In this document: in pieces, positions 16,700-62,674 of the stretch
Layout of the letters: each line of letters starts with the position of its first letter
Position numbering within the stretch: position 1 is the first letter of the stretch
From: Eledone cirrhosa
Taxonomy: Eukaryota
DNA length: 64,000 bases
Assembly (NCBI GenBank): GCA_964016885.1
Contig: OZ024741.1
Location: forward strand, 146,258,001-146,322,000
Direction: 5' to 3'
Notes under the pieces: model-generated
The model's input: only the letters and a program-made list of their open reading frames with translations
Database searches by the model: none
Told to the model about the DNA's origin: nothing
Made by a program: the position numbers and the translations under genes

Positions 16700-17300
16700 T
16701 TATATGAGCTGGAAAGCAAGTGTGATTTCATGTGTGGGCAACTGGTGAAAATTTCGTTTTTGCGTTTAGGCAGGTTTTTGGTGATTTAAGTTTCTATAAA
16801 ATCCAATATGTTTCACTTATGCAGAGTGTGCATCTTCTTGTTCCTCTTGCATATTCTTTAGATTGGTTCAAAACAGACCAATCCAATTTATATTGGATAC
16901 CTTGGTCTTTCAAATCCCATATTCTGCTAGCCAGAGCTGTTGTAAATCTTTTTTCTGGATGTCGGAAAGATGCGACATGTGAGTAATAACGCGTTTTGAA
17001 TTTGTCTTGTGTCATACCCACATATCGTTCGCTGGTGGCTGGTAGGTTGTTGCTGATGGTTGTCACGTTAGCCGCATATACAATGGCTTTGGTGTTGCAT
17101 TTACCTTGTAATGGGCATTCATTTTTTACTCTATAGGAGCAATTTTGATGTCCTCTGGGTGTTTTCTTATTGTTGATATAAGATTTAATAGGGGGACCGC
17201 AGGAGTAGCTAATTTTGACACAGTTTCTATTGAAGATCTTATAGTATCTATGTGTTCAAGGGAAATGTTTATCTAAGGGCTCTAGGAATTTTTTGCCTAC
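16700..17300 (-). pseudogene. Penelope GIY-YIG endonuclease domain
   Basis: IVY...YVG motif pair, R-x3-H, WDLK and C-x2-C-x2-E motifs; RYYKIFNRNCVKISYSC linker at ~17200-17250. Confidence 0.88.
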
Positions 17301-20879: not shown

Positions 20880-23694
<2,815 letters not shown>

Positions 23695-26199
23695 AAGACG
23701 ACGTCAGCCAGTAACAGATTTAAAGATATTTTACTCGATGCCAATGACAGTAAAGAAGAATAGATAAAGACATTCAATGTAGAAGAGCACTGGGGGTTCC
23801 TAAAAGATAACTTACTAGAGGCGACAGATGAGATCTGTGGTTGGAGTAAGACCACGGGCAGGAGGAGAGTGACTTGGTGGTGGAACAATAAGGTAGATGA
23901 GGCAAGTAAGGCTAAGAGACAGGCATGGAAAGAATGGAATAACGGGGGAAGCAGGCTACATTACATAGAGACTAGGAGGGATCTAGGCGACAAGTATACT
24001 TAACTAGGAGGGAAGCAGAGGATAGAAAATTCAAGCATGTTTTGCAACGTGAGGACCAGAAATAGGAGGTGTTCAAGATTGTGAGGCAGTGTGTCAGAGA
24101 TAATTGTGATGTCATTGGAGAGAAGTGTATCCAGAATGATAAAGGTGAGCTTGCCCTCACAAGTGCTGATAAGAAAGATGCGTGGAAGAGCCATTCTGAA
24201 AGATTACTAAATGAGGAGAATGCATCGGAAAAAGATACCCTACCCCAAGTAGACTCTATAGAGGGGCCAGCAGTACAAGTCAGGAGCAACGTAGTAAGTA
24301 AGGCAATCAAAGATATGAAGACGGAAAAGGCAACCGGTCCATCGGGTATAGCTGCCGAGATGCTGAAGGCATCTGGGTCGGTAAGTCACACCATAACCAC
24401 ACGTATTGTTAACCAGGTAATACTAGAAGGTGTCATACCAAAGGATTGGTGCAGCAGCATCATTGTCAACTACTACAATGGTAAAGGGGATGCACTAGAT
24501 AGAGGAAACTATAGAGGTATAAAGCTGAATGACCAGGTCATGAAAGTAACAGAAAGAGTTATATCACAGTTGATTAAGGACGAGGTGACTCTAGATGAGA
24601 TGCAATTTGGGTTTGTGCCAGTAAAAGGCACCACTGGTGCCCTCTTCCTTATGAGGCAGTTACAGGAAAAATACCTAGCTAAAAGTAAGCCGCTCTACCT
24701 CGCATTCGTCGATCTGGAGAAAGCCTTTGATAGAGTCCCCCTTGCTATAATCTGGTGGGCTCTTAGAAAACTAGGAGTAGATGAATGGCTTGTGAAAGCT
24801 GTACAAGCCATGTGTAGGGGAGCAGTCAGCAAAGTTAGGATTAACAATGACTATAGTGAGGAATTTAGTATACAGGTTGGTGTCCACCTGGGCTCTGTTC
24901 TTAGCCCTCTCCTGTTCATTATATTTTGCAGGCAATAATGCAGGAGTTTAAGACTGGATGTCCATGGGAACTCCTGTATGTGGATGACCTCACATTTATA
25001 GCTGAATCTATCGTAGAACTAGAGAAATAATTTCAAACATGGAAGCAGGGACTAGAAAGAAGGGGTCTCAAAGTCAACCTGACAAAGACTAAGGTCCTTG
25101 TAAGTAGACAAGAAAACGGAACCCAGATCTCCGCAGGCAAATAGCCTAGCTCAGTATGTAGGAAAGATGTAGGTAGGAACTCCATTCTCTGCCTCAAATG
25201 CAAACAATGGTTACACAAATATGTAGTGGTATCTCAGGAAGCTTAACTAAGAATGTAGGCTTCACATGCAGCAGCTGCGCTGGGACAGCAAGCAGCAGAC
25301 AGCCACAGGAAACAAGTACCACCAATCTCTGGGAGGGCTCTGTAGAAACAGTAGACAGCTTCTGCTACCTAGGTGACCGAATTAGCATCGGAGGTGGGTG
25401 TTCAGAAAGTACAATAACTAGGGTAAGAACGGGATGGAAGAAGTTTAGGGAACTACTGCCACTGCTAACTGCAAAAGGCTTTTCCCTCAAAATAAAAGGC
25501 AGACTGTATGATGCGTGTATACGAACAGCAATGTTACATGGTAGTGAGACCTTGGCGCTGAAGGTGGAAGACTTACATAGATTAGAGAGAAACGAAGCCT
25601 GCATGCTCCGATGGATGTGTAATAGTAATATACGCAAACAGCAAAGCATAAACGAATTGAGAGAGAGACTGAGCATAAGAGGAATCAAATGCTGTGTGCA
25701 GGAGAGGTGGTTGCGTTGGTATGGAAATGTGATGAGTATGAAAGATGACAGTTGCATAAAAAGGTGCAGAGCACTAGAAGTCGATGGAAGCCGCGGAGTG
25801 GAGAGACCCAAGAAGACCTGGGATGAGGTGATAAAAGCCGACTTTAACCAATTACACCTCTCAAAGGCAATGACACACGACCGTGACCTCTGGTGTCACA
25901 CAGTAATACAGAAGACCCGACCCCCCATGGGTACAAGCCGAAGCTGAAGCATATAGACAATATGCCCCCAACCCTTCACACTGCAAAGTGGTCGTGGAGG
26001 TGCCACGGCAAAAAAAGCACCCAACCCACACTGTAGATGAGGTTGGTGTTAGGAAGGGCATCCAGCTGTAGAAATCAAGCCAGAATCAGTTCCCGTATGA
26101 GTACGACATGGTCAGCTGACAGCTACTGCCCACAACAGGACAAACCGTCAAACCCATGCTAGTGTGGAAGAATGGACGTAAAACGGTGATGATGATGAT
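23695..26199 (+). mobile_element. RTE-clade LINE, 5'-truncated, degenerate; inverted partner of 20880-23589
   Basis: ORFs 24069-24938 and 25198-25947 are close homologues of 21184-23202; same long 3' UTR and (GAT)n tail at 26187-26199. Confidence 0.95.
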
Positions 26200-29619: not shown

Positions 29620-29665
<46 letters not shown>

Positions 29666-29668
<3 letters not shown>

Positions 29669-30062
29669 GGAGGTGAGTTTTATTGTAGTACAATAAAGCA
29701 ATGCAGATATCGGATAAGAAGCACTCTACAGTTTGTAGGACTGGAGTATACATAATATAAGATCAAAAGATGGTTAAAGGAGTTCCATGTATTTTATTAT
29801 GCGCATTTCAAAAACAAACATCATCATGCAATAATATTTGTGTTTTCATCAGATAAAACAGGAGAACATGATATGAAGGCTAAAAAACACTTGTGGATAG
29901 TGCAGTTGATTTAAAACTGCACTATCCACAAGTGTTTTTTAGCCTTCATATCATGTTCTCCTGTTTTATCTGATGAAAACACAAATATTATTGCATGATG
30001 ATGTTTGTTTTTGAAATGCGCATAATAAAATACATGGAACTCCTTTAACCATCTTTTGATCT

Positions 30063-30070
<8 letters not shown>
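29666..30070 (-). mobile_element. Hammerhead-bearing fold-back insertion in (TA)n (family 1, copy 1)
   Basis: 86-nt unique tail 29666-29751, 156-bp arms 29752-29907 and 29915-30070 with no mismatch seen, 7-nt loop; homologous to 36955-37378. Confidence 0.85.
29962..30032 (+). ncRNA. Minimal type I hammerhead ribozyme (palindromic stem III); mirror copy on the minus strand at ~29790-29860
   Basis: Stem I tgttttat/ataaaata; CTGATGA 29970-29976; stem II aaacacaaata.../...tgtttgttttt; GAAA 30013-30016; TGCGCA; TA 30023-30024. Confidence 0.85.
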
Positions 30071-30147
<77 letters not shown>

Positions 30148-30339
30148 TATTATATATTATTCATGTACATATTTTCAACAGTAATACTATATTATACTAT
30201 ATATTTTCAACAGTAATACTGTACTATATATTTTCAACAGTAAAACACAGACGGCTTATCGTCTGTTTATCCAAGCGAAGCTAGGTACGTCAGCTATATA
30301 TATATATCTGGATGCCGTAGAACACGGACCAGCTAGTAT

Positions 30340-30560
30340 ACATGTATCACCTTGTCCTTTTTATTCCTGCATGCTACATCTGATTCCACTTATACCCAGT
30401 TTTTCTTTTAACTTAGCTGTGCTTCATTGTTCATGCTCACTAACATTACTTATCTAGTAAAGCATGCTTGCTTCATTTCTTTCCAGCTTTTGTACATCCT
30501 CTGCACTCAATGCCTATGTTTTGCTACCATGCAACATCACACATCATACACATACATCAT
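30340..30560 (-). mobile_element. RTE 3' coding remnant
   Basis: Similar to the MLHGSETW...LERNEASML region of the other RTE copies. Confidence 0.6.
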
Positions 30561-31799
30561 CCCATCTAACATTGTTTTCATATCTCTGTAGTTCCTTCTG
30601 TTTAAAGCTACTTCTTTACACTTGTTGCAGTTGGGGATGAAATCGCTTATCCAGTTTGAACTCTAGACTGAGTAGCATGTTGTGTCCTTCAAAACAACAC
30701 ATCATTTCATATGGTTTTAGCCCACTCAACTGAAAAGATTGAGTAGCAGCAATAGCTTGGTGTTAAACTGTACGCAGTAAAAAAAAAGGATATAAACTCT
30801 AGGTTTGTGAAAAACTTTAAAGATCTATGTTTACTTGCAGCTCATGATATAGTTGTTTTGTTGATGCTGTTATTTTCATTCATTCTTTGTACCAAAAACA
30901 TGTAATTTATAGACAAGACAGACTTTTAAAGATTCATTTCTGTTATGGAAATGGATGTTTTTATTGGATGGAAAATATTCAAAATAGATTTAATTGAGAT
31001 AGTGTGTTCCATACTAAAACCTTTATCAGTTGAATAATGTTAAAAATAATCAATAATTTTTCACAAATATTGTGATGGGTAAAATATTTTGAGAAAATGT
31101 GTTATTTCCCTGTCAAACTTCTATTCTTCTTTGTAGTATAATAGTATCAAAACACACGCCTGTTTTCTGAGTGTTTCCAATAATTGCCTATTGATATTGG
31201 AAAAGAGAAAAAAGAAAATAAAGAGGTAATAATGAATGATACAGCAAAACACTAGAGTAGGTGTATTACTGTGTCTAGTTTTATATCACAAGTTGAAGTG
31301 TAATGAATCATAAGGAAGACCTTTATATCTTCATCATCGTTTTACATCCACTTTTCATGTTGGCATAGGGTAGACTGTGTTTAGTTTTATAGCACTAGTT
31401 GAAGTATAATAAATCATGGTGATGTCCTACATATTAGCACCTTCATTTTATGTCTGCTTTCCATGTTGTCAAGGAGTAGACAGATTCTCGTGGTTTCAGG
31501 TTAGGAAGGGTGGAGAGACCTCATCATTCTCATACAAGTTTGAATTCTATAGCTGAATGCACTTCTTAATATTAACCACAAGATAAATTTTATTGTGGCA
31601 CTAGCACTATCAATTTGCAGAGAATATTATTCCAGATTTTCTAATAGTTTCTTCTTACATCATTAGGGCCAGCCAAAATATTGGTGATACCCTGAGAAAG
31701 CTGTGTCTTGTAGATGTAACAAATGTTCTAAATTAAAAAATAATTGTTTCTACCTTTGGCACAAGGCCAGCAATTACCCCAGTGCATTACTGGTGCTTT

Positions 31800-33080
31800 A
31801 TTTCTATGAACTTCATGAACAGCAAAGCATAAATGAACTAAGAGAGAAACTAGGCATAAGAGAAATCAGATGCAGTGTGCAGGATAGGAAATTGCATTGG
31901 TATGGTATGGTGCAGAGCACTCAAAATCGATGGAAGCTTTGGAGTGGGGAGGCCCAGAAAAACTTGGGATGAGGGGATAAAAGCTAATGCTGCTCAATTG
32001 CACCTCACAAAGATGATGACATAGGACCGGGATCGCTGGCATTATGCAACAATACAGAAGACCCACCTTCCCATGGGCACAGGCTGAAGCTGAAGCATAC
32101 ATATATATAGTATGCTCCACTCCCACTAGACCCTCCCATACATCTCTCATGAGGACAGGCTGTAGCATATATCTAGTGAAGCCTTCAGCCCACACTGTAA
32201 AGTGGTTGTGATAGCGACTCGACTAAAAGCGCCCAGCACATATTTTGGTTGGCATTAGAAAGGGCATTCAACTGTAGAAACCAAGCCAGAAAGAGTTCTG
32301 TGTGAGCATGTCATGGTCACCTGACCCAACTTGCCTCAAATGGGACAAGCTGTGTAACCCATGCTAGTTAAAATGGATGTTAAATGGTGATGATGATATA
32401 TATCTTGAGGGAAAAACCTTTTGTGGCCAGCAGCGGCAACTCCCTGAAATTTTTCCATCCTGCTATATTTTTGTGTACCCATAATTTGCATATGGGATAC
32501 AGGATGGAGTTTCTACCTACTCCTTTTCTGCACACTAAGCAAGGTCATTTCCATGGTGAGATCAGGGCCCTGTTTTCCTTTCTACTCACTAGGAATTTAG
32601 TCTTTACCAAGTTGACTTTAAGGCTGTTTGATTCCAAGCTACTCCTCCATCTCTGATTCTGTCATAGATTAAGCTATGAAGGTCAGATTGTTGGCATATA
32701 GATGTTTCCATGGAAAACTAGTCTTAAATTCCTCTGTTATAGCCTGCAGGACAATAATGAACAGGAAGAGGCAAAGAACTGGTGGATTCCCACTTGCACA
32801 CTAATTCCCTCATTATACTCATTCTTAATTTTGACTTTGCTGGTAGCCCCTCTGTATATGGCTTGTACCACCCTCACAACTCACTCATCTGTCCCTAGTT
32901 TTCTGAGGGCCCACCATGTTATGGAGTGAGGGACTCTGTCATATGCTTTCTCTAGGTCCATAAATGCTAAGTAGAGGGGTTTGTTTTTAGGCAAATACTT
33001 CTCCTGCAGTTGCTTCACAAGGAAGAGAACTTCGACGGTGCTTTTTTTCTGGCACAAATCCAAACTGCATCTCATGTAGG
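31800..33080. mobile_element. Cluster of RTE fragments (plus-strand 3' end ~31800-32397; minus-strand RT fragment ~32400-33080)
   Basis: HEQQSINELREKLGIR, 3' tail ending gatgatgat; minus-strand LQEKYLPKNKPLYLAFMDLEKAYDRVP. Confidence 0.8.
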
Positions 33081-34254
33081 TGTATTTGATCTCTAAGAAG
33101 AAGATGAGAATATAAGGAACTAATAAACAACAGTACAAATCATTAGCAAGCTCATAAGTGTCAAATAGTGTGGAAAAGGATTGTTACACTTGTTACATAG
33201 TCATGTAATAGTCTTTTTGCACAAGCATTAGTGATATATAAATATAGCAGTAGAATCATGTTGAAAAAGAGAGAGATAGCAGATTATTGAAAATCAACAG
33301 TATTCTGGAGTGTAAAATCTTAAATTCTACATAAATATGTGTATTAAAAGTATGGCTTTAAGTTGTTAAATTACACTACTCACACCGAATTATAGGAAAG
33401 TGAAACCCCAAATTCATTTTCGACATGTTTCTGCTGAAATGTGTTGTTATAATAGTGTAGAAGGAAAAGAAATCGAAATATACTGGTGTTATAATTGTTT
33501 CTACTTTAGGCACAAGGCCAGCAATTACCCAGTGCATTACTGGTACTTTATTAGTAATGCACTGGGTGTGACAAAATCGGGACGATATACTCTCCCTGTT
33601 TTTTCTTAAGGAATAAATTTTATTTTTTTTTTTTTTTGCTCTGAAACAGTACTGTCTGACATTCTGAAAATAGACTGGCAACTCTAACATATTCACTGAA
33701 AAAAAAAATGTTTTTTAAGAAAATATATTTTTTTTCGAAAACAAGGCTACTCATATGTTTTTGTATATTAATGCATAATATACATCTATATATGTTTTCA
33801 CATACAGTTCTTCCTTTCTTTCTCTCTCTATGTATGTATGTGTATATATATGTGTATATATGTGTATATATATGTATTATGTGTATATATAACCCATGCT
33901 AGTGTGGAAGAACGGATGTAAAACGGTGATGATGATGATGATGATGATATATATATATACACACACACACATAAACACATATACAATGAAAATATCAATA
34001 TATATATATATTGACTTATTGACCAATAACCTGTCGATGCAAATGAGGTATTAAAAGAACCTCAAGCTGAGGGGCACTTAAATAGATATTGTGAAAGGTG
34101 CAAGAATGTTAATATCTTGCCGAAAAAACAAAAACATATTCTCAATATGTACAATAATACTTACATTATATTCGCAATCTAAAGTTATAATACATGCCCA
34201 GACAACGTTGTTTCTGATCTCGGAGGAACACAATAATCACCACAATACATATAT

Positions 34255-35175
34255 GTCATCATTATTATCGTTTAAGGTCTATCTCCATGCTAGCATTTGT
34301 TAGACGGGAATTGTCCCTCTTGAGGCAAGATTGATTGGGTGAACATGTCTCGCTCATATAGAACTGTATTTGGCAGGTTTTCTATGGCTGGAGGCCCTTC
34401 CTAACACCAACCACATTTACGGTGTGGACTGGGAGCCTTTTTACCGTGTCACCTACATGACCACTTTACAGCGTGGACTGCGTGTTTTTTTGTGTTGTGA
34501 CTCCTACACGCCCTCTTTAGTTTGGACTGGATGCTGTGGTACCAATGTAACTTTACAAAGAAAGGGTAGTGTTAGTGGAAGTGGGAGTATGGAGTAGGGG
34601 TAGTGGGTTGGGGTATATATTTGGTTAAGAAGTGCCTACTGACTGTACGTTAACTTTGTACATAGGAAAGGCAGGTCTTCTGTATTACTGCGCGGCACCA
34701 AAGATCTCGATCCAGTGACATTGTCTTAGAGAGGTGTAAGTGTGCAAGGTCAGATTTTATCATGTCATCCCAGATTTTTCTGGGTCTACCTACTCCGTAA
34801 CCTCCATCAATTTTGATCGCTTTGCACATTTTTATACAGCTGTCGTCTTTCATGCGCATCACATGATCATACCAACGTAATCTTCTCTCAAGTAAACAGC
34901 ATCTGATCCCTCTTATTCCTAATTTCTCTAATTTAGTTCATTTATGTTTTGCCATTTGTGTATATTACTATTACACATCCAACAGAGCATGGATGCTTTC
35001 TTCCTCTCCAGTCTGCGCAGATCCTCTGCACACAATGCCCATGTCTCACTGCCATGTAACATTGCTGTTTGTATACAAGCATCATACAATCTGCTTTCAC
35101 TTTTAGAGAGAAACCTTTTATGGCCAACAGCGGTATTAGCTCTCTGAACCTTTTCCATCCCGTTCTAACTCTGGC
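34255..35175 (-). mobile_element. RTE 3' fragment with long 3' UTR
   Basis: [35 protein letters not shown]...GRPRKIWDD, followed by the 3' UTR module. Confidence 0.85.
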
Positions 35176-36179
35176 TATATATATATATATCATTATCATC
35201 ACCATCATTGTCATCATTTAACAACTACTTTCCCTGCTTGCAAGGGCTGGGTGGGTGTACATGTCAGTACTGAATCAGGGCCACTGACGTTCCAGTTAGG
35301 CTGGGAAGGTCTGTATCCCACTTAAGTACGTTCATCATCAAATTCAGAGAAGTTATCAAATCTTTTGACACCAATTGATTGATAATCGTAACCCGTTGTT
35401 TGGTAAGATTTCTACAACTTGAGGCCCTTTCTAACACCAACTATTTTACAGTGTGTCAGTGTGTACTATATATATATATATATATATTTTTGGCATATTA
35501 TAATCAGTGAGTTTTTGGTTATCATGTTCAGCTCTGCTGATGATCGAATCCAACCGTGACCATCCCCACTGAAAGTTTCGTGAAATAGTCTTTTCAAGAC
35601 TATACAGAGCATGTGTAGTTTTTCCAAATTGAAGGATGAGTATTTTAGACTTTATTTTATCATGAGTTAAGGCTCTATTGATTTTTCCCTGGATTTCACT
35701 AAATTCTGTTGGATGAATCTATATCCTGATTCTTTTTGAATTGAGTTTGAATTATTTTTCCCACATCTTACGTTAACTATTTTCCCATTTTGACGCTATA
35801 GTCACTTATATATTATGAAATACTGTGTGCTTCTTGCTCATAATAATTTTTACACTTTTCATTTATATATATATATAAATAAAGAGAGAGAGAGGGTGGA
35901 GAGTGAGTCATATACATATCCACAAATATAGATAGATATAAAACATGTATATATAAATATATATTATATATTAATGAATAATGAATAACTGAGATTTAAT
36001 TATATCGGTTCAAAGGACAGGAATATTCAGTCCTGCTATATCAATCTCTTCAGAATCTATTAAATAACATTAATATTTACTAACACATGTCCATATGATG
36101 GAAAGAAAACTAGATGAATAAAGGGCAGTTCCGGTAGCAGAGAATTTGCAATTCAAGATGTAAGAAAACCAAGGATAGT

Positions 36180-36545
36180 CATCATCATCATCATTATCAC
36201 CGTTTTACGTCCGTTCTTCCATGCTAACATGGGTTAGACGGGTTGTCCTATGTGGGCAGTGTCTGGTCAGCTGACCATGCCTTGCTCATACAGGAACTGA
36301 TTTTGGCTTGATTTCTACAGCTGGATGCCCTTCCTAACACCAACCGCATTTACAGTGAGTGCTGGGTGCTTTTTTGCCATGACACCTCCACGACCACTTT
36401 GCAGTGGAATGATATGGACCCCAGTCCCTATTATCACATTTCTACAGCTGAGTAAACTGAAGAATGTGAAATAAAGTGTCTTGCTCAAGGAAACAACACA
36501 TCAACCGGTCTGACAATTGAGCTCACAACTAAGCCATGAGCCTCC
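36180..36545 (-). mobile_element. tRNA-derived SINE sharing its 3' ~230 nt with the RTE 3' UTR
   Basis: Head GGAGGCTCATGGCTTAG, CCTTGAGCAAGACACTTTATTTCAC core; 36180-36405 matches 20880-21075 and 25980-26199. Confidence 0.85.
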
Positions 36546-36641
36546 ATATATATATATATATATATATATACTCTTTTACTCTTTTACCTGTTTCAGCCAT
36601 CCGGCTGAGGCCATGCTGGGGCACCGCCCTTATATATATAC

Positions 36642-36674
<33 letters not shown>

Positions 36675-36679
36675 TACTG

Positions 36680-36738
<59 letters not shown>

Positions 36739-36743
<5 letters not shown>

Positions 36744-36932
36744 AAAAAGTATGACCCCGACGGCAGAGCTCAAGCTGTTTCGACGGCTATTTCAGTCCAG
36801 AAATAGCCGTCGCAACGGCTTGAGCTCTGCCGTCGGGGTCATACTTTTTCCTATTACCCACTCTACTACCCTAAGTATTGAGTACTCTGGTGCGTTATGG
36901 TCCATCTGGTTCCTTACCACAATTCCTTCGTT
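36739..36932 (+). mobile_element. Fold-back insertion in (TA)n (family 2, copy 2): ~55-bp arms + 78-nt tail
   Basis: Arms 36739-36793 and 36800-36854 (2 mismatches), loop agtcca; tail homologous to 14139-14216. Confidence 0.75.
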
Positions 36933-36954
36933 ATATATATAAATATATATATAT

Positions 36955-37378
36955 GTAGACGGTGAGTAATATTGTAGAACAATAAAACTATACATAATTC
37001 AGATAAGTAGCACTCAACAGTTAGTAGAACTGCAGTATATATTAAAGAAGAAATTAAAAGATGGTTAAAAAAGTTCAATATATTTTATTATGCGCATTTC
37101 GAAAACAACATCACCCTGGGACAAAAATTGTGTTCTCATCAGATAAAATAAGGTAACATGTTATGAGGCCTAAAAACACTTGTCAACAGGAAAGTGCAAA
37201 ACCTACATATGATATGTAGGTTTTGCACTTTCCTGTTGACAAGTATTTTTAGGCCTCATATCATGTTACCTTATTTTATCTGATGAGACAACGCAATTTT
37301 TGTCCCAGGATGAAGTTGTTTTTGAAATGCGCATAATACAATATATGGAACTTCTTTAACCATCTTTTCATTTCTTCT
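36955..37378 (-). mobile_element. Hammerhead-bearing fold-back insertion in (TA)n (family 1, copy 2)
   Basis: Tail 36955-37045 resembles 29666-29751; arms ~37046-37210 and 37212-37378 with scattered mismatches and a 1-nt loop. Confidence 0.85.
37271..37343 (+). ncRNA. Minimal type I hammerhead ribozyme; mirror copy on the minus strand at ~37080-37150
   Basis: ttattttat-CTGATGA (37280-37286)-stem II-GAAA (37324-37327)-TGCGCA-TA-ataat. Confidence 0.8.
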
Positions 37379-37387
37379 CTCTCTCTC

Positions 37388-37479
<92 letters not shown>

Positions 37480-42203: not shown

Positions 42204-42329
42204 ATAATAAATGTGAAGACTAAAATACAAAGAGGGCTCGATAAGGATAAATATATATCAAATATATAAGAACCATAGAGCAAATATTTATTAAAATAAC
42301 AGATTAAAGTTTAAGCAAAGAATCGCTGC

Positions 42330-42797
42330 TTGTGCAACCCTGTAGCTAGTACTAACTGTAATTGTAGGAATTGGGTTGACTGCCCTCAATCCGGGAAATG
42401 CCTCTCCAATAACATTGTCTACAAATGTAAGGTCAAAACATCCACGTCTATTAGGGCCTACATATGGTTAACCGCCAATAGATTCAAGCAGCGTCTTTAC
42501 ATGCACGACCATTCTTTTCTTAACCCTTTAAGAAGGAATATGACGTCACTTTCAGCTTATATCTGGAGTCTAAAAGACAACCACACCCAATATATGTTAC
42601 ACTGGGAGATCCTAGCTAACGCTAGATCGTATAGTGGAAATAATAGACCATGCGGTCTTTGCGCCGCTGAGGCGTTGGAAACACTCCAAGCCAATGACCA
42701 CATCTTAAACAAAAAATATGAGGCAATTTCGGCTTGTAAACACAAATCGCATAACACTTTCCTGTATTACAGCCCCTCATTATACCCTAAGGGATAG
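42330..42797 (+). pseudogene. Penelope-like GIY-YIG endonuclease domain (5'-truncated element, GT-rich 3' UTR to ~43600)
   Basis: CNCRNWVDCPQSGKCLSNNIVYKCKV...AYIWLTANRFKQRLYMH...TSLSAYIWSLKD...CGLCAAEA...LNKKYEAISACKH. Confidence 0.9.
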
Positions 42798-47631: not shown

Positions 47632-50600
47632 GGTCTGATCAGACGTCTTTTTGCTCGCTCCCGTCTATTTATTTACCTGTCATAAATTATTAATTGTTAA
47701 ATTTTTGTTGTTGTGTAAGGGACATAAGCCCTTGGACTTTGCGCCAAGAAGGGGAAAGTATAATATTTGGGCTTTTTGGCCCAAATATTTTACTTTTAAA
47801 AATTATCAAATAAAACATGGCTGAGCCACGCCTCCCAGCGATATGTCTGCTGCCGTGTGACAACAGCATAAAAGATGAGGGTTACGGCGAACACAGAAAT
47901 TGATACAACAAACACCACCACAAACAATGTGAACAAAGACAGCAATGACAACAACACTGAGAACACTAATTTAAAAAAAAAACCACACCAACCACAACAG
48001 TAACAGTGACAACCAAAATACAGACAACAGAAAAAAATGACAACAAATGCAACAATGATGTTAACACCACTAACAAGAAAATAAATAATGACAACACCAA
48101 CAGCAACAATACAAATTGCACCAAGAACAACAACAACAGCAGCACAAAAAACACAACCAACTACAACAGTGATAACAGCAACAACACCATCAACACCGTT
48201 TGTAGCAGTAGCAACAGCAACAGCGCAAAAAACAAGACCAGTAGCAGCAGTAAAAAACAAGACCAGTAGCAGCACTAATGGTGCCGCTGAAAAAGGGGCC
48301 ACTTCTTTCACAGGTGTGGCCCGAAATATAGAGACAGTGCTAGTCACGGAGGAGGAGATGGGAGTCGCAAGGGCCATGGTGACAAGAAATGACAATAGAG
48401 TTTCCCTGAAACTTCCACCCGATTTTTTCAAGGACCAGCAGCTATGGACGGTGACTTACCACACTGCAAGCAAAATGTCACATCGCGTGATGAGAGCCAC
48501 GGAGGCTCAAATCCTAAAGGCCTTGGCGTGCAAAACCCACATCCCCTGAGGCAAAAAGTATGCCACAGTAGACGTACTTTTCACCGAATGTGCCAATGTG
48601 GTCATGGGCAAACTGCATTGGGTCATCCAGATCGTATTTAGATAGGGTATTCTGTAGGGAAACAGGACTTCAGGAGTATGGGTTGCGGTGCATACGTCGA
48701 CAGACTGCCACGGCTCTCGACGACCGCAGTGCTGCGAAAAGCCGATAACAACAGATGAAATATAAGAAGCGATGTCTGACTGCACGAGGGGTAAATCGCC
48801 AGGTTTGGATGGTCTGCCCTACAAGCTTTATGCGTACATGCCAGACATGTTCGGCGACCTCTAGGCAGATGTCTACTGCAACTGGCAGCAGAATGGGAGC
48901 ATTCCCAGTTTTGTGAGCCAGGGAATGGTGGCGCTGCTGAGAAAAGACCCTAACAAGGGTGACGTTATAGACAACTTCAGGCCCATAACTCTGCTAAACC
49001 CAGAGTTCAAGATTTTGGCCAAGGTATTAGCAAAGAGATTGGTGCTTGTCATCGGCGATCTGGTGGGAAAGGCGCAGAAATGAGCCATTCCGGACAGATC
49101 CATCCATGACAACCTCCATCTCATGCAATACATCATAGAGAGGGGGGTTAAGGAACCTGGCACGGGTGGGGCCCTGATCAACTTGGATCAATCTAAAGCA
49201 TTTGATAGGATAAACCATCAGTACCTGGCTGTGGTCCTCGAGGTGGCCAGCTTCGGGCCAATTTTTAGGGGCTGGATCGCTGCAATGCACAGCGACATCT
49301 ACTCGATTGTGAGGGTGAATGGTCACCTGTCGCAGCCGTTCAGCATCATGCGCTCGGCCCACCAGGGTTGTCCCTTCTCGCCCTTCTTATATATACTGGC
49401 CCTCGAGCCATTACTGCACAAATTGGAGATGATGAGGCTGGTTACACGCGAACTGGGGTGCAGGAGATCCATGTCGGCTTATGCCGATGACGTCTCCGTA
49501 GTGGTGGCGAGCACCAAACAGGTCCAGATGCTCGGCACCGCTCTCAAGGAATACAAAGCGGTGAGAGGAGCGAAGATAAACCAGGAAAAGTTGGTGGGCT
49601 AGCCACTTGGCACCTAGAGAGGCAAGTCCATGCCGTCCGACAGCATCGTGGGGCGCTGGACGGAAGGACCGGTAAAATTGCTCAGAGTCTGCTTTGGTCC
49701 GGACCTCCAGATAGAGAAAAACTGACCATCGTACCTTGCCCTTGCCCAACTCTGACCAAAATGGAGCACCATCTCTTCCGCTTTTAAGTGCAAGGGACAT
49801 ACTCCCATGGTCAGACGATCCATCTGTTGTCAGCACCTGTTGTGTGGAGGACAGGGCATTCCGTGGCTGATGATGCAAAAACATGCGCTGAGGCTGCGAC
49901 ATCTCTTGTGCTTCCTTGACGGTGAACAGGTGTGGTCGCCATTTGCTCATCTCCTTACTGGAGCTGCAGTCCTGGATCAGGAAAAGATCACTGGATAGCG
50001 CTTAGAAGCTGAAATGTCTCCAAGCGCTCACCACCCTCTACCAGCTGGGTTCTGATATCGGTGGAACTTCCACTCGGCGTTCTATAGAGGGTTAGTGGAA
50101 GGGAAGAGCGACAACATTCTCGAGGAGAGCCTGTGCATCGAAGACGATCAGCTGTTCGCTCTCTTCAAGAGAACTTTCAGTCCGGGGCTTACGCACAACT
50201 TCCAGAAATCCCTGTCCTGGCAATGCTACCGGAGAGCATTTCCAGCTCGGGATAAGCTCTACAGGCACAGAGGTGCTGTCAGCCAAGCCTGTCCGAGATG
50301 CGCGCAGCGCGACGAAACCGTCTTGCATGTACTCGTTCAGTGCACGAGAATTGCTGACTTGTGGAGCTATGTCGAACAGCTGCTGTCGCGTGTAGTACGG
50401 ATCCAGTTATCAACTGAGTCCATTGTGCAGATAGCCCCGCCATTTTCCTTTAAAGAGGAGGAAGGGCAGGCAGTTTTCATCTGCCTGGTGGCCATGGCGA
50501 AAGAGATTGTGTGGTGGACAAGATTGAAAGGGTTGAAGACGGACACTTTCTCTCCGGCCAATCCCTGAATAACTTTTTCACGTTTCACTTGAAGAGGAAA

Positions 50601-50963
50601 ATCAGGGTGGAGAGGCAAGTGGTGTCTTCTAGTAAGTTTATTGAAAGGTGGGTGAAAGTGGTGAATCTGGTCCGAGTGAATAGGCCCACTCTGAGTATGT
50701 ACCTGTAGACTGAGGAGTGGGAAACTGAGAGAGGGTGCAGCCCTGGGGGTAAGGGTGGCCGTGGTCTTTTGTGTGGTTCTCACCACGAGTGACCCTCGGA
50801 AGTTTCCCCCCTATTGGGGAATTTTTTTTGTTTGAATTTTTTTGATATTTCTATCTGCTTTAACAGCCAAAACCCTCTTTGTATGGTCCTGTACCATTCT
50901 GTGCCGTCTGTAATGTTTTTCTTCATGTTAGCCCTTGTGGCCAATAAAGAAACCATTATTGTT

Positions 50964-50998
<35 letters not shown>

Positions 50999-50999
50999 T
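47632..50999 (+). mobile_element. Tx1/L1-group LINE, copy B (large internal deletions)
   Basis: ORF1 core (SFTGVARNIETVLVTEEE), jump at ~48585 to the APE end, RT ORF 49123-49602 (AYADDV), zinc-finger ORF 50095-50568 (CPRC...ETVLHVLVQC), AATAAA at 50943, (ATT)n tail. Confidence 0.92.
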
Positions 51000-53900
51000 G
51001 GCGACCTACGTAGTAAATCGTATCATCGTGAGCTCCGCAAAGGTTTGTTATTTTCAGTTGTTTAAAATTGCCATTTATGGAAAATTTTTATTGTTAACTG
51101 TATATAAGTGCACATACATTGATTTCTGAAAAGGACACTCAAAATTATTTGGGCCTTGAGCCCAAAATTTAAACTTTTTATAATTATCAAACAAAACAAA
51201 TTTCTTTGAAAAATCATGGACGACTCAGATTCACTCCTTCCTCACAAACTAACACCTCACACCGACACCACCATTGTAAATATTACTACGTTTGCCAACA
51301 CTAAAAATATAAGCAGTAGCAATATTTTAAATTTGTCTCAGGCAGACATTCATTTCCCGCCATTACCAAAGACTGCAGGTGTTAAAGCCCCCCCCCACCA
51401 CCACCACCACCACCACCACCACCACCACAGCGACAAGCCCCACCACCACCACCACAGTGATAACAGAAACAAAAGAAAAAAATAAATGAACTCGTGATAT
51501 CGAAATGAATTCAACCAAAATGTACTCTTCCACACCGAACACCACTGACGCCACCACCACAACTGAAACTAAAATTAACAAAAACAAAAATAACGATAAC
51601 AACAACAGCAACAATGAAATTAAGAAAACTACCCTGAGTTTTGCCAGAGTGGCAAAAACGTGCGAAGCGATCCAGGTAACTCAGGAGGAATTAGAAGAAG
51701 CCAAAAGAATGGTAAAGAAAGATGGGTACGGGGTCAGCCCCCCCCCCCCCCACACACACACACACACCTAATAAAATGGAGCATCGGCGCCTATGCACCG
51801 TGTCTTATCGGACAATTAACATAAAATCGCGCCGAGTGAAACGGGCATCCGAGTCCCAAATCCAAAAAGCTTTGGGACATGTGTGGGGAAAAAAAACACA
51901 TATCAGACGTGGGCAGAAATATGGAACCGTGGACGTGTTCTTTGAAACACCACAGGAGGCCAGAGAACACTCCATGGCCCCATTAAGAAGTGACGACTTC
52001 ACACTCGTTCCAAGCTATTGTGGCCAGAGACTTGTAAAGATCAGGGTGACCCACGTTCCACCGGCCATCGAAATTCCCTGGTAATGGCTGCCGTCCTCGC
52101 CGGCATCAAGGCCAACACCAAGATAATCGAAATAGTGAAAGAAAAGCAGGAGAACTGGTCCGGATCTGGGATGGAGCTCCTGATCCAAGCGGACCATAAA
52201 AGCATTCAGGAGACCCCAGAGGTAATAGACCTCACTGACGGCAGCCACCTCACCGTAATGATCGAGGGCAGAAGGCCTAGGTGTGACGTTTGAGGTGAAG
52301 CAACCTACCTAAGGGCTTTCTGCCCTCAGGCTAAAAGGTTGAGGCCACCTCTCTTACCCACCCCAGTGACTCAACCATCAACGCCACCAGCAGCAGAAAT
52401 GGCAGCAACAACTGTAGCAGCAACAACAGAAGCAATTGTAACAGCAACAACCCCAGCAACAGTAGCAAAACCAACACCACCACCACCCAACGCGCCAGAA
52501 CTGGCACCAGCACCTACACCATCCACCACGCCACAACCAAAACCAACGCCTGTGGAGGATTTTCCACTCCCCGGCTTATCGCAACTGGAGACAGATTTTG
52601 ACGACGAGGAGTGGGAAACGGTATCAGGAAAAAAGAAAAAAAGAAACCAAAAAAGAAAAAATTATCTTCCTTCCCCCTCCAAAAACAAAATACAGAGGGA
52701 AACAAATAAATTATCAAACAAAAAAGTTAGGACAGATATGCCACCATCCACACCCGCATCACCAACCCCATCACCACAAACACCAACACCATCACCATCA
52801 TTAACCCCAACACCACCATCACCAACACCAAAAAAGTCACCAAAAAGCGTAACAGAAACAAACCCACAACAAACGCAAACAAAACAAAACAACCGAAACG
52901 ATACACACTAAACAGCATTAAATTTGAACAACAACCAATTATTACACTACATGCAACACAACACCAGCATCACAGATAAAGACTACACAACAACCCAAAA
53001 GTTCACACCACCTCCACACATACAAATCATTCGCTAACACAGAAAACGTACACGACACTAAAACATAAATTCCCCAAAGACATCGGAGACTTCCGACAAA
53101 CACTCTCCAGGAGGATTTATAAGGAAATCCTTCCGGAGGAGGCCACAAGCAGAGAAAAGGATGGACAAACCATCCTTCCTCTACGCGAAGTAAGGTAAGT
53201 GGTCTTTCCCATTTTTCCACTCCATTTCAACATGACCTCATTCAGAATAGGCAGCATAAATGCGCGTGGCTTGGGGTCGTCATGGAAGCAGGGCCACCTG
53301 CTCAACGACCCCAGGTCACTAAACATGGATGTAGTGGCCATCAGCGAGACCAGAATCTCCGAAGCACGGGTCTTCGCACCGATCTTCGGCGGCTACGATG
53401 TGTACGCATCTCCCAGCCGTCCAGGATCGGGGGGAGGAGTTGCTGTGCTTTTTCGGAGAGGTTTGGATCTCGCCATACGAGCCATCTTCCTGGAACCAGA
53501 AGGTAAGTTGGTGGTGCTATACGTCACCAGCGGAGACGGGCAAGCTTTCAGGCTAGTGGCCTCTATGCCCCGGCAGGAGCAGGGCGGCCTGATTTCTTCT
53601 GGCGTCTGGAGACCTTTATTGGAACGTCCCGCTCTTTAGTGTTAGTGGGCGACTGGAACGGGATCTTAGATGCACGCTGGGACTGTGTGGGATTAGTGGA
53701 TAGGGGAGGCAGGTGCAAGACCCTCATCAACCAGCTCAGGCGTTTTGAACTGTCTGACAGGTACCGATTGGATTTCCCGAACGTGCCAATGTGGACTTGG
53801 ACAAACCGCATATGGTCATCCAGATCATATCTAGATAGAGTATTTTGTAGCGAAATAGATAGGTCTAGCATATGCTGTCCACAATTCAAGATAGTCAGCT

Positions 53901-56735
53901 ACACGGACCACAAATTCGTGATCTGTGTGCTTGACTTAGATAGGCTTCATAGACGAGGACCCGGCTACTGGAAGCTAAACGCGTCCTTACCAGTGCGCAA
54001 GGCCTACAGAGACCGGATTAGCGAACTAGTTAAGCGGGCGTTGACGGGGGCCATCGTAAACAACAAGTGGTGGTTTGCTCTGAAAAGAGAAATTAGAATA
54101 GAGTCCATTAGGTTTAGTAAGGCTTTAGCAATAAAGAAAAATGAGAGAGAACTAGTTAGAAAATTAGATGAGGCGCTTAGCAAAGGCATCGCGACCGACG
54201 TACTTGCGGCGAAATTGGCCCTTGACCAATTCTTCAATGCAAAGCACGAAGGCTGCGTTGTCAGAGCTAGGGTGCGTGCTCTCAGACACGAGGGGACGAA
54301 AGCCCGAGTGGCGGAGGCGCGTCGTGGCAACAAAGCCACGATCCGGTCTTTGGTGGACCACGACGGGCGCATGCTACTCAATGCCGGGCAAATGTGTGAA
54401 GCTTTTCAGCGACACTTCGCTCAGCTGTTCGGGGGCAGCGGCGGGCCGGATCGAGGGATGGACTTTAGTGTCTACCTCGACGGACTGCCGCGGCTCTCGG
54501 CCACTGAGGCGGAGTGTTGCGAAAAGCCGATAACAGCCGCTGAAGTACGGGAGGTAATGACTGGCTGCACAAGGGGTAAATCGCCTGGTTTGGATGGTCT
54601 GCCCTATGAACTTTACGTACAGATGCCAGACTTTTTCGGAGGCCTCTTGGCGGACGTCTACTGCAACTGGCAACAGAACGGGAGAATTCCCAGCTCTGTG
54701 AGCCGAGGAGCTGTGGCGCTGCTGAGAAAGGATCCGAACAAGGGGGATAACATAGATAATTTTAGGCCCATAACTCTGCTAAACACAGAGTTCAAGATTT
54801 TGGCCAAGGTGCTAGCAAAGAGGGTGGCGCTTGTCGTTGGTGGTCTGGTGGGAGAGGCACAGACATGCCCCATTCCAGACAGATCCATCAATGACAACCT
54901 CCACCTCATGCGATACATCGTGGAGAGGGTAGCTAGGGAACCTGGCACGGGTGGGTCCTTGATCAATTTAGATCAGTCGAAAGCTTTCGATAGGGTCGAC
55001 CATCGTTACCAAGCGGCAATCCTGAGGGCGGCTGGCTTTGGGCCCGTCTTCAGAGGGTGGATCGCTGCCATGAACAGCGACATCTGCTCTGAAGTGATAG
55101 TGAACAGTCACCTTTCGGAACCGTTCAACATCATGCGCTCGGTCCGCCAAGGATGTCCCCTCTCGTCCCTCTTGTACGTATTGACTCTCGAGCCATTACT
55201 GCACAAACTGGAGACGTTGAGGGGGGTCCCGCGCGAACTAGGATGCGGAAGATCCGCGTCAGCATATGCGGACGATGTCACCGTAGTGGTGTCGAACGCC
55301 AAACACATCGAGGCGATCGGCACTACACTAAGAGAATACGAAGCCGTGACAGGAGCAATGATCAACCAGGAAAAGTCAGTGGGCCTGCAGCTCGGCACCT
55401 GGAGAAGGTAGGTCCATGCCGTTCAACAGCGTCGTCGGGCGCTGGACGGACGGACCGGTTAAATTGCTAGGGGTCTGGTTCGGACAAAAACTGGGACGAG
55501 GTGACGAGCAGGGTGGCTTCTCTCACCCAGAAATGGGCCGAGATGAAGCTATCCCTGAAAGTTCGAGCGGAGGTGGCTAACGCGTATATCGCGTCCGTCA
55601 TCTACTACCGCCTGACCGTCGTACCTTGTCCTAAGCCCAGCCTGACTGCGATGCAGTATTTGCTATTTCGCTTTTTGTGGAAGAGACGCGCTCCGATAGT
55701 CAGGCGGTCCATCTGCTGTCAACACCCGGTACGTGGAGGGCTGGGAATCCCGTGGCTGTTGATGCGCAGACACGCGCTCAGGCTACGACATCTCCACCTC
55801 TTCCTGGGCGGTGATCAGGTGTGGTCACCGTTTGCTAGACGCGTCTTTCCTCAGCTCGTCTCCTTGACGGAGCTGCAGTCCTGGGTCAAGCGAAGACTGA
55901 GAGGGAGCGCTTGGAGACTGGAATGTCTTCAGGCGCTCACAGCCCTCGACCAATCGGGTAATGTGATCGGTGGAAACTCCACCTTGGCGTTCTATAGAGG
56001 ATTAGTGGAGGGGAAGAACGATGACGTACTTGGGGAAACTCTAGGCGTCGATGAAAATCAACTAGCCAATCTCTTCGGAAGAACTTTCGGGCCGGAGCCT
56101 ATGGACAACTTCCAGAAATCCCTGGCCTGGCAGTGCTACCGAGGAGCTTTGCCAGTTCGGGATAAACTCTACAGGCATGGATGTGCCGTCAACCGGGCAT
56201 GTCCGAGATGCGCGCAGGGCGACGAAATCGTCCTGCACGCACTCATCCAGTGTCCGAGCATTGCTGACTTGTGGGTTTATGTGGAACACCTGATTAACTT
56301 TTATGTGGAACACTGATTAACACCTGATTAACTTTTTCAAATTTCATTTGAAAAGGAAAATCATGGTAGAAAGTGAAGTGCCCTCTTCCCAGCAATTTGC
56401 TGAAAGATGGGTGAGAGAGGCAAGAATGGCCCGAGTGAATGGGCCTACTCTGAGTATGTGTCTGTAAATTAAAGGGGGAAAACTGGGAGAGGGCACTTTC
56501 CCTGGTGGTCAGGGTCACTGTGGCTTTTTAATGGGCTTTCTCCACGGATGTCCCTCGGAAGTCTCCCCCCTATTGGGGAATTTTTTATTTGTTCTATTAT
56601 TACATCCTCTGTTTCTTGTTTTTTACACGCAGAAATGCCCATTTGTACCGTCCTGTATTGTCCTGTACTGTCCTTAATGTCTACTTTATGTAAACTCTTG
56701 TGGTTAATAAAGAAAGCATTATTATTGTTATTATT
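51000..56735 (+). mobile_element. Tx1/L1-group LINE, copy C (near full length, frameshifted)
   Basis: ORF1 fragments 51216-53198; ORF2 from ATG 53232 (IGSINARGL, AISETR, LVGDWN, YLDR, TDHK, FRPITLLN, QGCPLS, YADD, CPRC..H...C); AATAAA at 56706; (ATT)n tail. Confidence 0.96.
53232..56466 (+). pseudogene. Tx1 ORF2: APE endonuclease - reverse transcriptase - C-terminal zinc finger (frameshifted)
   Basis: ORFs 53199-53639, 53639-55411 and 55501-56316 together give the canonical domain order. Confidence 0.93.
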
Positions 56736-56949
56736 GGTTGGTGAAGCCACGCTTCTTATCGCCTCCAGTCTTTTTCAACGTTTTACCTCTTTTTCAACCG
56801 TTCTAAACCTTTTATTCAAGTTTTAAATTTGATAAAATTTAGAAGAAGTGACCCACCTAATACAGGGGATCACTAGTAAATAATACGGCACCCCTTTACG
56901 GGGTGTCGTATTCGTATTTGTGTAAAAATATTTTTTGAAAAATTTCAAC

Positions 56950-58940
56950 ATGGATAACACAAAAAAGAGAGAGAGCGCTGTCAGACAACACAGAGAGAGG
57001 GAGACTTTATCAGCATGTCAACAAGACAGCGTTCCAGCGGAGGTAAATATAAACGAAAATATTACAAAGGAAAAAGAGATTGTTACAGATTTAAAATCAA
57101 CAAATATTTCTAACACAAACAACACCAACAACAACACCAAAAATAACAGCGGTAAAGTCGAGAACGACAATAACAAAAATAACAGCGGTAAGGTCGAGAA
57201 CGACAATAACAGCGGTAAGGTCAAGAACGACAATAACAACAGCCACAACAACAATAATAGTAGGAACAGTAACAACAAAAACAACAATAATAACAACAGC
57301 CACAATAACAGTAACAGCAGCAACAGTATCAACGAAAACAACACCAACAACAACAACAACAACTGTACCAGCGCAAAGAACAACAATGAGACCCATAGCT
57401 GTAATAGTGACCTCAGCACCACCAGTAAGACCAGTAGCGGCAGCAATAGTGGTGCTGCTGAAAAAGGGACCACTTCTTTTGCAGGTGTTGCCCGAAATAT
57501 CGAGACAGTGTTAGTCACAGAGGAGGAGATGGCAGTCGCAAGGGCCATGGTGACAAGAAGCGCAAATAGAGTTTCCCTGAAACCTCCACCCGATTTTTTC
57601 AAGGGCCAGCAGCTACGAACGGTGACTTACCGCACCGTAAGCAAAATCTCACATCGAGTTGAGAGAGCCACGGAGGCTCAAATCCAAAAGGCCTTGGGGT
57701 GCGTGTGGGCACGCAAAACCCACATCACCCGAGGCAGAAAGTACGCCACAGTAGACGTACTTTTCGCCACCCCCAAGGAAGCAAAGTCTCACTCTTTGGA
57801 AACCCTAAAGAGTGAGCAGTTAGTCTTGGTGCCCTCCTACTGCGGGCAGAAAATTGTGAGGGTCAAAGTGACCCAGGTCCCACCCGACGTGCCCATACCT
57901 TGGATGGCCGCGTCTGTCCTTGCTGGAATTGAGAACAGGGCGACCATGCTGCAAGTAGAAAAAATAGGGAGAGAGAACTGGTCAGGTATAGGCATGCAAA
58001 TGCTTATACAAACTGACCAGGAATGTATCGAGGCTATCCCCGATATCATAGACTTTGAGGAAGGACTCCAACTCCCTATAAGTGTAGAAGGAAGACGGCC
58101 AAAATGTTATCTCTGTGGGTTGAAAGGTCACCTCAGGGCCTTTTACCCGCAGAAGACACCGAAGAGGGCCCCTCTCCTTCCAATACCTGGTCCGCTGCTA
58201 CCAAGAGCAGCACAGGCAACAAACAAAGAAGCCCCTTCCACGGTGAGTACGAGGTCAACGTCCGTAGCACCCGTACCAAGGCCACGGATAACTAAAGCAG
58301 CATCATCAGTAGCGGCAACAACAATAGCTACACCAGCAACAACATTGCCGAAGAGGGCTCCTCCACTACCACCACCAACAGCACATACCCCTCCCAGACG
58401 CCACAGAATCCGACATGGAGTTTGAGGCGGGAGTGACGTGGCAAACAGTCTGCCACAAAAAAGAAAAAAGAAAAAACCCTTAGATTCACCCTCCAAAAGC
58501 GAAGGCATACAAAGAGGGGTAAAGGCAGCAAGGAAACTTGCAGCAACACCACCACAAACACCAACAACGCAAACACAAGACACACACACCAAACAACAAC
58601 AAGAAGAAAACGGCAACAAAATCACCCCTCCCCCCCAAAAAGTACACAGCCCTAAACATAGCAAAAAAACGAACTCATAAAATATATAAAGCAGCACACA
58701 GACATCACGGAAAAAAATTACTACACCCCACCAACACCAAGAACTCTCCCGACAAACATAAGCATCATCGAAATCTCATTAGAACAATACAAACCTTTAA
58801 AACAAAAATTCCCCAACGCAGTTGGAGACTTCAGAGGGACGGTTACCAAGAGGATATACACTGACATCCTCTTGGAAACACCCATGACCAGCGAAAGGGA
58901 CGGTTCTACTGTCCCTTTACCACACGAACAAGGTAAGTGA
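56950..58940 (+). pseudogene. Tx1 ORF1 (Asn-rich N-terminus, RRM-like core, zinc knuckle CYLCGLKGHLRAFY, Pro/Thr region, conserved C-terminal segment)
   Basis: 496-aa ORF then frameshifts; homologous to ORF1 of copies A, B and C. Confidence 0.88.
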
Positions 58941-58972
58941 TCCTTTCTCATTTGCCCCGTTTCTCATCCAAC

Positions 58973-61900: not shown

Positions 61901-62387
61901 GCAGTGCTACGGGGGAGCGCTACCGGTTCGAGATAAGCTCTACAGACACGGAAGTGCCGTCAGCCGAGCCTGTCCGAGATGCGCGCATAGCGACGAAACC
62001 GTTGTGCACGCACTCGTTCAGTGCCCGAGCATTGCTGACTTGTGGAGCTATGTCGAACAGTTGCTGTCACGTGTGGGACTGATCCGGTTGTCGACTGAGT
62101 CCATTGTGCAGATGGTCTCGCCGTCTTCCTTTGAGGAGGAAGGGCAGGCGGTTTTCATCTGCTTGGTGGCCATGGCGAAAGAGATTGTGTGGTGGACAAG
62201 GTTAAAAGGATTAAAGACAAACACTTTCCTCTTCGGCGAATCCCTGATTAACTTTTTCAAGTTTCACTTGAAGAGGAAAATCAGGGTGGAGAGGCAAGTG
62301 CTGCTTTCTAGCAAGTTTGTTGAAAGGTGGGTGAATGTAGCGAGAATGGTCCGAGTGAACGGGACCACTCTGAATATACGTCTGTAG
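58973..62387 (+). pseudogene. Tx1 ORF2 (APE-RT-zinc finger); stop codon within YADD and frameshifts
   Basis: gct TAG gct gac gac at 61028-61042 replaces AYADD; other motifs as in copy C. Confidence 0.93.
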
Positions 62388-62674
62388 TTTGAGAGATGGA
62401 AAAATTGAGAGAGGGCGCTTGCCCTAGTGGTCAGGGTGGCCGTGGTCTTTTGTGTGGTTTTCGCCACGAGTAACCCTCGGAGGTTTCCCCCCTATTGGGG
62501 GATTTTTCATTGTTTCAATTTTCATTTTATTGTTTATATATATATATGTTTCATGTCTTTTTTCTTTTCTTATATAAATAATAAAAATATTTACACGCAC
62601 AAAACCCACATCGTACCGTCCTGTTCCGTCTGTGATGTTTTTCTTGATGTCAGCCCTTGTGGCCAATAAAGAAA

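Follow-up and report, generated by a model that had tools for sequence, protein, structure and literature searches.

The window analysed here is a stretch of 64,000 nucleotides from the 3.0-Gb genome of Eledone cirrhosa (contig OZ024741.1, positions 146,258,001 to 146,322,000 of the forward strand), and it holds two DNA hairpins, copy 1 and copy 2, whose arms carry hammerhead ribozyme motifs. An original prediction, made from the letters of the window, had described two fold-backs of shared layout inserted in (TA)n; both are there, with tails of 86 and 91 nt and loops of 7 and 1 nt, and both lie in (TA)n. In the following, element positions are counted with the tail end as 0 and upstream bases as negative. 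Copy 1 starts from a (TA)20 target (29625..29665, unstranded), which is followed by the 86-nt tail (29666..29751, minus strand), lying between two inferred start sites of reverse transcriptase (RT), and by the tailed arm (29752..29907, minus strand), a copy of the pseudo-long terminal repeat (pLTR) with its 5' end at element position -247. At the junction (29905..29914, plus strand), a 3-nt microhomology leads into a tail-less inverted pLTR copy (29905..30070, plus strand), which runs from -252 to about -86. The 156-bp arms pair perfectly (29752-29907 with 29915-30070) around the 7-nt loop, and (TA)n resumes on the right (30063..30157, unstranded). In copy 2, the 91-nt tail (36955..37045, minus strand) precedes a tailed pLTR arm (37046..37210, minus strand) and a tail-less inverted one (37212..37378, plus strand), both complete to the fixed 5' point described below and identical in 155 of 167 columns. 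The single loop base between them, G37211 (plus strand), is ambiguous, being either the right arm's copied cap base or the left arm's templated base. Copy 2 then passes into (CT)n(TA)n, with the right (TA)n target at 37390..37476 (unstranded). Identity between copy 1 and copy 2 is 327/435.

Sequences related to copy 2, with about 94% identity, often do not stop at the hairpin centre but run on into a longer element with frames for RT and a GIY-YIG endonuclease (EN). When the RT of this family was used as query, a young family with many open frames of 821 codons was obtained, and the pLTR and tail of these elements are 96-99% identical to copy 1. The tail-less arm of copy 1 and the copies at loci L138 and L131, which bear an open reading frame (ORF), are identical at 162 of 163 nt. 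This active family has a unit of 3,896 nt, which is found in tandem arrangement, and its pLTR shows tandem and inverted layouts with a one-sided tail, a trait of EN+ Penelope-like elements (PLEs). In intact elements the tail continues into the 5' untranslated region (UTR), 81 nt before the ATG. The 26-mer at the tail end occurs 10,770 times genome-wide, and 227 copies run on into the 5' UTR. Judged from these sequence matches, the hairpins are almost certainly short end-pieces (stubs) of protein-coding Penelope-like retrotransposons, copy 2 representing the terminus of a sister family that is older. The suggested link to Penelope was thus borne out by an autonomous PLE ending in the copy 1 sequence. 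The idea of a separate non-coding element was not, since both copies are ends of coding elements and short and long arms share haplotypes.

The ORF at locus L132 encodes 800 amino acids, with RT followed by GIY-YIG. Searches of Pfam and of PDB sequences with this ORF gave no match. The predicted structure of the protein (predicted local distance difference test, pLDDT, 79) matches RTs, telomerases being best with a TM-score of 0.33, while a single-sequence model reached a pLDDT of only 32. The GIY-YIG motif, aligned across 18 proteins, has moderate support, with an Atlas score of 0.95 to a cluster with 11% PF01541; PF01541 itself was matched by 1 of 18 homologues (E=0.0012). The marks of the Hydra clade found in the protein are DKT, CxCX5C, CxxC and CxH at 123, 659, 759 and 787 and the C-terminal EN; a hammerhead near the 3' end and the (TA)n target are also present. 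At the alignment column in which RWK is found in 9 of 17 homologues, the protein reads RWT. By these motifs, the active family would belong to the Hydra clade. Residues 580-658 of the L132 protein form an Asn-rich disordered linker from RT to endonuclease, like that of rotifer PLEs (PMC3846280).

Among short tailed copies (n=57), 40 had an inverted partner, and none of these 40 partners was tailed. The tailed arm was shorter in 18 pairs, longer in 2 and equal in 20, and the tail-less arm sometimes exceeded it by 150-200 nt. Of 50 pairs, 18 of which came from a query-biased first set, most had two arms of one and the same subfamily. Junction sequences varied widely between insertions; perfect palindromic junctions were common, and some junctions had symmetric extra bases on both arms. 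The exact junction of copy 1 occurred 78 times in the genome, and the 40 such copies fetched, which belonged to several subfamilies, had the tail on the left (32), on the right (6), on both sides (1) or on neither (1). The seven commonest arm signatures were present in long and short copies alike. Each hairpin consists of a tailed and a tail-less pLTR copy placed head to head, and we consider it quite probable that these derive from two target-primed complementary DNAs (cDNAs). The view put forward originally, an independent non-coding fold-back element that has a master copy of its own and is moved whole by a Penelope enzyme, would account for the 17 loci identical to copy 1 over 245 nt, for the recurring junction with its tail mostly on one side, and for the 34 short versus 10 long arms in the youngest haplotype. 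Nevertheless, the variety of junctions, the several subfamilies and tail positions behind a single junction, and the signatures common to long and short copies largely rule out such a master copy, and this explanation is very improbable. The recurrence of the same junction in several subfamilies and in both orientations instead agrees with another claim of that prediction, namely that the hairpin formed at insertion.

Self-priming was also considered, in which a single strand, either an antisense RNA (proposed in PMC3846280) or the first cDNA, would snap back and serve as template for the second arm. The agreement of arms in subfamily and the frequent perfect palindromes would fit, but the tail-less arm reaches further 5' in 18 pairs versus 2, and an arm longer than the tailed one cannot be its copy without later trimming. 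Together with the symmetric extra bases at some junctions and the existence of a long tail-less copy combined with a short tailed one (L138), this makes self-priming distinctly unlikely.

The two-cDNA origin is further informed by where the arms end. On the element map, -186 is the start of the hammerhead core and -132 the base after which the cut is predicted; tail-less copies terminate close to -86, and 5' ends accumulate at -256. Exact 34-mers starting at -256 were counted 6,046 times genome-wide, and only 2,260 carried 5 nt more of the common read-through form. Ends were sampled from the first-listed matches, 96 of the 10,770 tail ends and 70 of the 227 copies continuing into the 5' UTR; with duplicates removed, and with continuing copies taken out of the first set, 87 segments were available for scoring in the first set and 69 in the second, in which a single locus supplied four. 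The site at -256 was reached by 55 tail-ending segments, of which 25 stopped there, and by 41 segments arriving from the ORF, of which 0 did (Fisher p=4.5e-8). In the sister family, 14 of 32 segments, copy 2 among them, stop at the homologous base. Since a sequence-driven pause would affect both segment classes, the absence of stops in segments arriving from the ORF argues against one. These end statistics, with one fixed 5' point in tail-ending copies, are what is new here. Another reading would make the palindromes long-read or assembly artefacts. The arms of copy 1 are 100% identical and no contig spans the whole stretch, as an artefact would have it; however, the arms are asymmetric by a fixed tail and diverged in older copies, and contigs from three public runs of a single sample, possibly the source, show head-to-head joints of varied kinds that lead into the fixed point. 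An artefact is therefore hardly conceivable.

The base before -256 was G in 1,174 cases and A or T in 1,206, the template base being C. The ratio of G to T was about 1.26 versus 6:22 at two control sites (p=3.6e-4), a comparison which loses some weight because the share of T at -257 was extrapolated from 100 listed matches and the control comprised only 28 ends. No read-through copies were found among 29 sampled G cases. In 96 of 100 read-through copies a fixed motif stands at +28 (27 nt past -256), and it does so in both families with a differing spacer. In L1, capped full-length ends are recognised by an additional G (PMC11702581), and the Penelope of D. virilis has an internal promoter in its pLTR (PMC2377424). 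The untemplated G and the fixed motif distance in both families suggest that -256 is likely a capped transcription start. The two cDNAs could also be kept with -256 as an RNA processing site or a hotspot of breakage and rejoining: it starts with self-complementary ATAT, like the target, and about half of the G cases are ambiguous. Segments arriving from the ORF should then stop too, yet 0 of 41 do, and the G excess over controls and the fixed +28 spacing fit a promoter, so that we regard this variant as unlikely. The literature searched, which lay mostly outside subscription papers and the supplements of PMC11167929, yielded no description of PLE stubs with a fixed capped end.

All four arms contain one motif of the form stem I-CTGATGA-stem II-GAAA-TGCGCA-TA-stem I. 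In copy 1, minimal type I motifs lie at 29793..29858 (minus strand) and 29964..30030 (plus strand, predicted cut after 30024). In copy 2, the left arm carries a minimal motif at 37083..37148 (minus strand) and the right arm one at 37274-37341 (plus strand, predicted cut after 37335) with one stem I mismatch. The pair closing stem II is A-U in copy 1, G-C in the left arm of copy 2 and G-U in its right arm. The minimal hammerheads described originally for each arm are all present. They have the core, stems I and II and palindromic stem III of the minimal type I hammerhead. A motif search gave 146 distinct matches in 1.2 Mb of fetched loci, picked for carrying the copy 1/copy 2 element, versus 0-1 in five shuffles; the motifs are not chance matches. 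Stem III was perfectly palindromic in 9 of 14 motif clusters, in five sequences, palindromy not being a selection criterion. The copy 1 dimer is predicted to fold with an open core at -38.7 kcal/mol versus an optimum of -39.3 kcal/mol, and this difference of 0.6 kcal/mol is consistent with the dimer type that had been claimed. The search with hammerhead models that had been suggested as a check returned nothing, as Rfam models gave no hammerhead match in the window or in a single arm. Four exact ends at the predicted cut site were at first suggestive of a truncation hotspot, but with 37 of 6,283 at this site versus 42 at a control site this idea was rejected. Since the stubs span the cut site and the cut site is not a stop, the stubs probably derive from uncleaved RNA, and the notion of a ribozyme-processed element is not supported for copies 1 and 2.

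A further hammerhead family, with stem III TATATA, was observed at L033, L050, L026, L047 and L231. It has the same head-to-head layout, with tailed and tail-less copies, and at L026 its copy adjoins an arm of the copy 1 type. Its tail has two short motifs in common with those of copies 1 and 2, which are possibly a protein-binding signal.

From the pairing of arms, the fixed end and the uncleaved template, a mechanism can be proposed in which two reverse transcriptions on opposite strands run off the capped 5' end of uncleaved RNA, and we consider this probable. A dimeric enzyme would nick both strands of (TA)n, and, since (TA)n is its own reverse complement, both cut ends would be equivalent primers. 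One cDNA would start at 0 and the other at -86, both extending to the RNA 5' end (-256), and their ends would be joined bluntly or via 1-4 nt of microhomology. Both cDNAs are probably copied from one RNA, which would explain the one-of-each rule, the matched haplotypes and the shorter tailed arm; the cDNA of the tailed arm would need to displace the other cDNA. The strong-stop DNA of long terminal repeat (LTR) elements, a short cDNA of the RNA 5' end, is comparable to the stubs, which are likely dead ends. Long copies would require a template that lacks the -256 end, whether through a circle made by the hammerhead, an RNA reading through tandem units or an obligatory jump. The scar of such a jump, a G in read-through copies, gave 0 matches in a weak test, confined to one subfamily context and without positive control. 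As a more tentative extension, two RNA forms may exist: a capped linear RNA giving rise to strong-stop hairpin stubs, and a hammerhead-cleaved, re-ligated 3.9-kb circle giving rise to long and tandem copies. Both subunits of one dimeric enzyme would copy the same capped RNA from two start sites, and long and tandem copies would never stop at the start because their template is circular. If true, this would be the first genomic evidence for a role of the PLE hammerhead and for pLTR regeneration.

Several observations weigh against this interpretation. The end sample consists of first listed places, mainly on contigs 1-2; the first bases of the fixed end, ATAT, favour joining by microhomology; and 16 of the 29 sampled G cases are readable as the partner arm's base in a loose 9-mer test. 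In a few pairs the arms disagree at subfamily sites or are both tailed (L022, L294), and long tailed arms were traced for 600-720 nt only, their partners lying outside the score. As for the ribozyme, the copy 2 motif folds worse than that of copy 1, and in the active family stem II is closed by A-U instead of the usual G-C.

The inferred promoters at the hairpin centre would face outwards. Transcripts initiated by the element itself would then consist of single arms, and RNA of the whole hairpin would depend on read-through transcription entering from the flanks. A to G changes made up 1 of 43 within-pair substitutions and 8 of 111 rare variants, and in neither set was there an A-to-G excess as a sign of A-to-I editing. 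With an outward start and no such excess, the claim that transcripts fold into long double-stranded RNA appears weak.

Published descriptions of PLE structure (PMC8557442; PMC3846280) already include an inverted copy that is 5'-truncated and a tail on one side only, and Cervera and De la Pena 2014 reported opposite-strand hammerhead pairs 100-700 bp apart, tied to truncated PLEs (PMC4209133). Copies 1 and 2 are thus the shortest case of a known form. With the Hydra clade (Craig et al. 2021, PMC8557442) the active family has in common the single RT-GIY-YIG ORF, DKT, CxCX5C, CxxC, CxH, the hammerhead near the 3' end, the (TA)n target and the inverted 5'-truncated copy with one-sided tail; for Penelope-13_HM a hammerhead is listed there on both strands. 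It differs in its 3,896-nt unit (generally <3 kb in Hydra), its tail of 86-91 nt (30-40 described), RWT for RWK, and a hammerhead unlike those listed, including Hydra-1_oBim. It is a new family of a known kind, with ordinary layout and unusually clean end statistics. The palindromic helix III and predicted dimer are shared with the minimal hammerheads of PMC4209133, whereas A-U replaces the usual G10.1-C11.1 in the active family; circular templates were proposed in that paper, and its passages compared contain no end mapping.

PAc, a Poseidon element of Anolis, nicks and extends both strands with uncleaved RNA as template (Frangieh et al. 2024, PMC11167929), and resembles the present family in its AT-rich target and in two internal start sites bounding a tail. 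Its start sites lie inside the ORF and here in the 5' UTR, and no difference in start site was seen between its strands, in contrast to the pairs here, nearly all of which combine one of each; the passages compared hold no fixed capped end or fold-back model. Non-LTR retrozymes (bioRxiv 10.64898/2026.07.22.740005) are likewise short, non-coding and pLTR-derived with a type I hammerhead, but they are head-to-tail tandems of non-coding units with their own lineage and amplification; copies 1 and 2 are head-to-head stubs of coding elements and do not belong to them. Twin priming of L1 (PMC11702581) also involves two target-primed cDNAs, a microhomology join and an extra G at capped ends. Its cDNAs copy adjacent, non-overlapping RNA, while here both copy the same 170 nt, which gives a hairpin. 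The formation of tandem and inverted PLE copies and the role of the hammerhead have been called open questions (PMC8557442; PMC2377424). The fixed end point at a likely capped RNA start is a testable clue to PLE copying, and the active family, being young and abundant with many intact ORFs, offers predictions exact to the base, with the start at -256, RT initiation at 0 and -86 and the cut at -132. In practice, annotation of this genome should treat its thousands of hammerhead hairpins as stubs of PLEs and not as microRNA precursors or a novel ribozyme element.

Directly left of copy 2, at 36742-36933, lies a third, unrelated fold-back in (TA)n, with arms of ~52 bp, a one-sided 80-nt tail and no hammerhead motif in the scans made. 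It has 293 candidates, and most of 20 fetched loci are head-to-head with joins near one point; some relatives run on into a longer element. It probably represents a further PLE family, to which the same mechanism applies. At L360 (G000:C2:216011300-216012900), four short direct and inverted pieces over tail and 5' UTR form a compact nest, which suggests repeated template jumps. Elsewhere in the window, fragments of related GIY-YIG domains at 42315-42797 (plus strand) and 16794-17255 (minus strand) share 39% and 33% identity, respectively, with the 800-aa protein. Two inverted LINE-type RT copies, 91-93% complementary, occupy 21181-25944 around the (TA)n at 23589-23694. Finally, 175-3978 and 47796-62403 hold several copies of one element, three of them in tandem at ~5.8-kb spacing, which from its motifs we take to be L1/Tx1-like.

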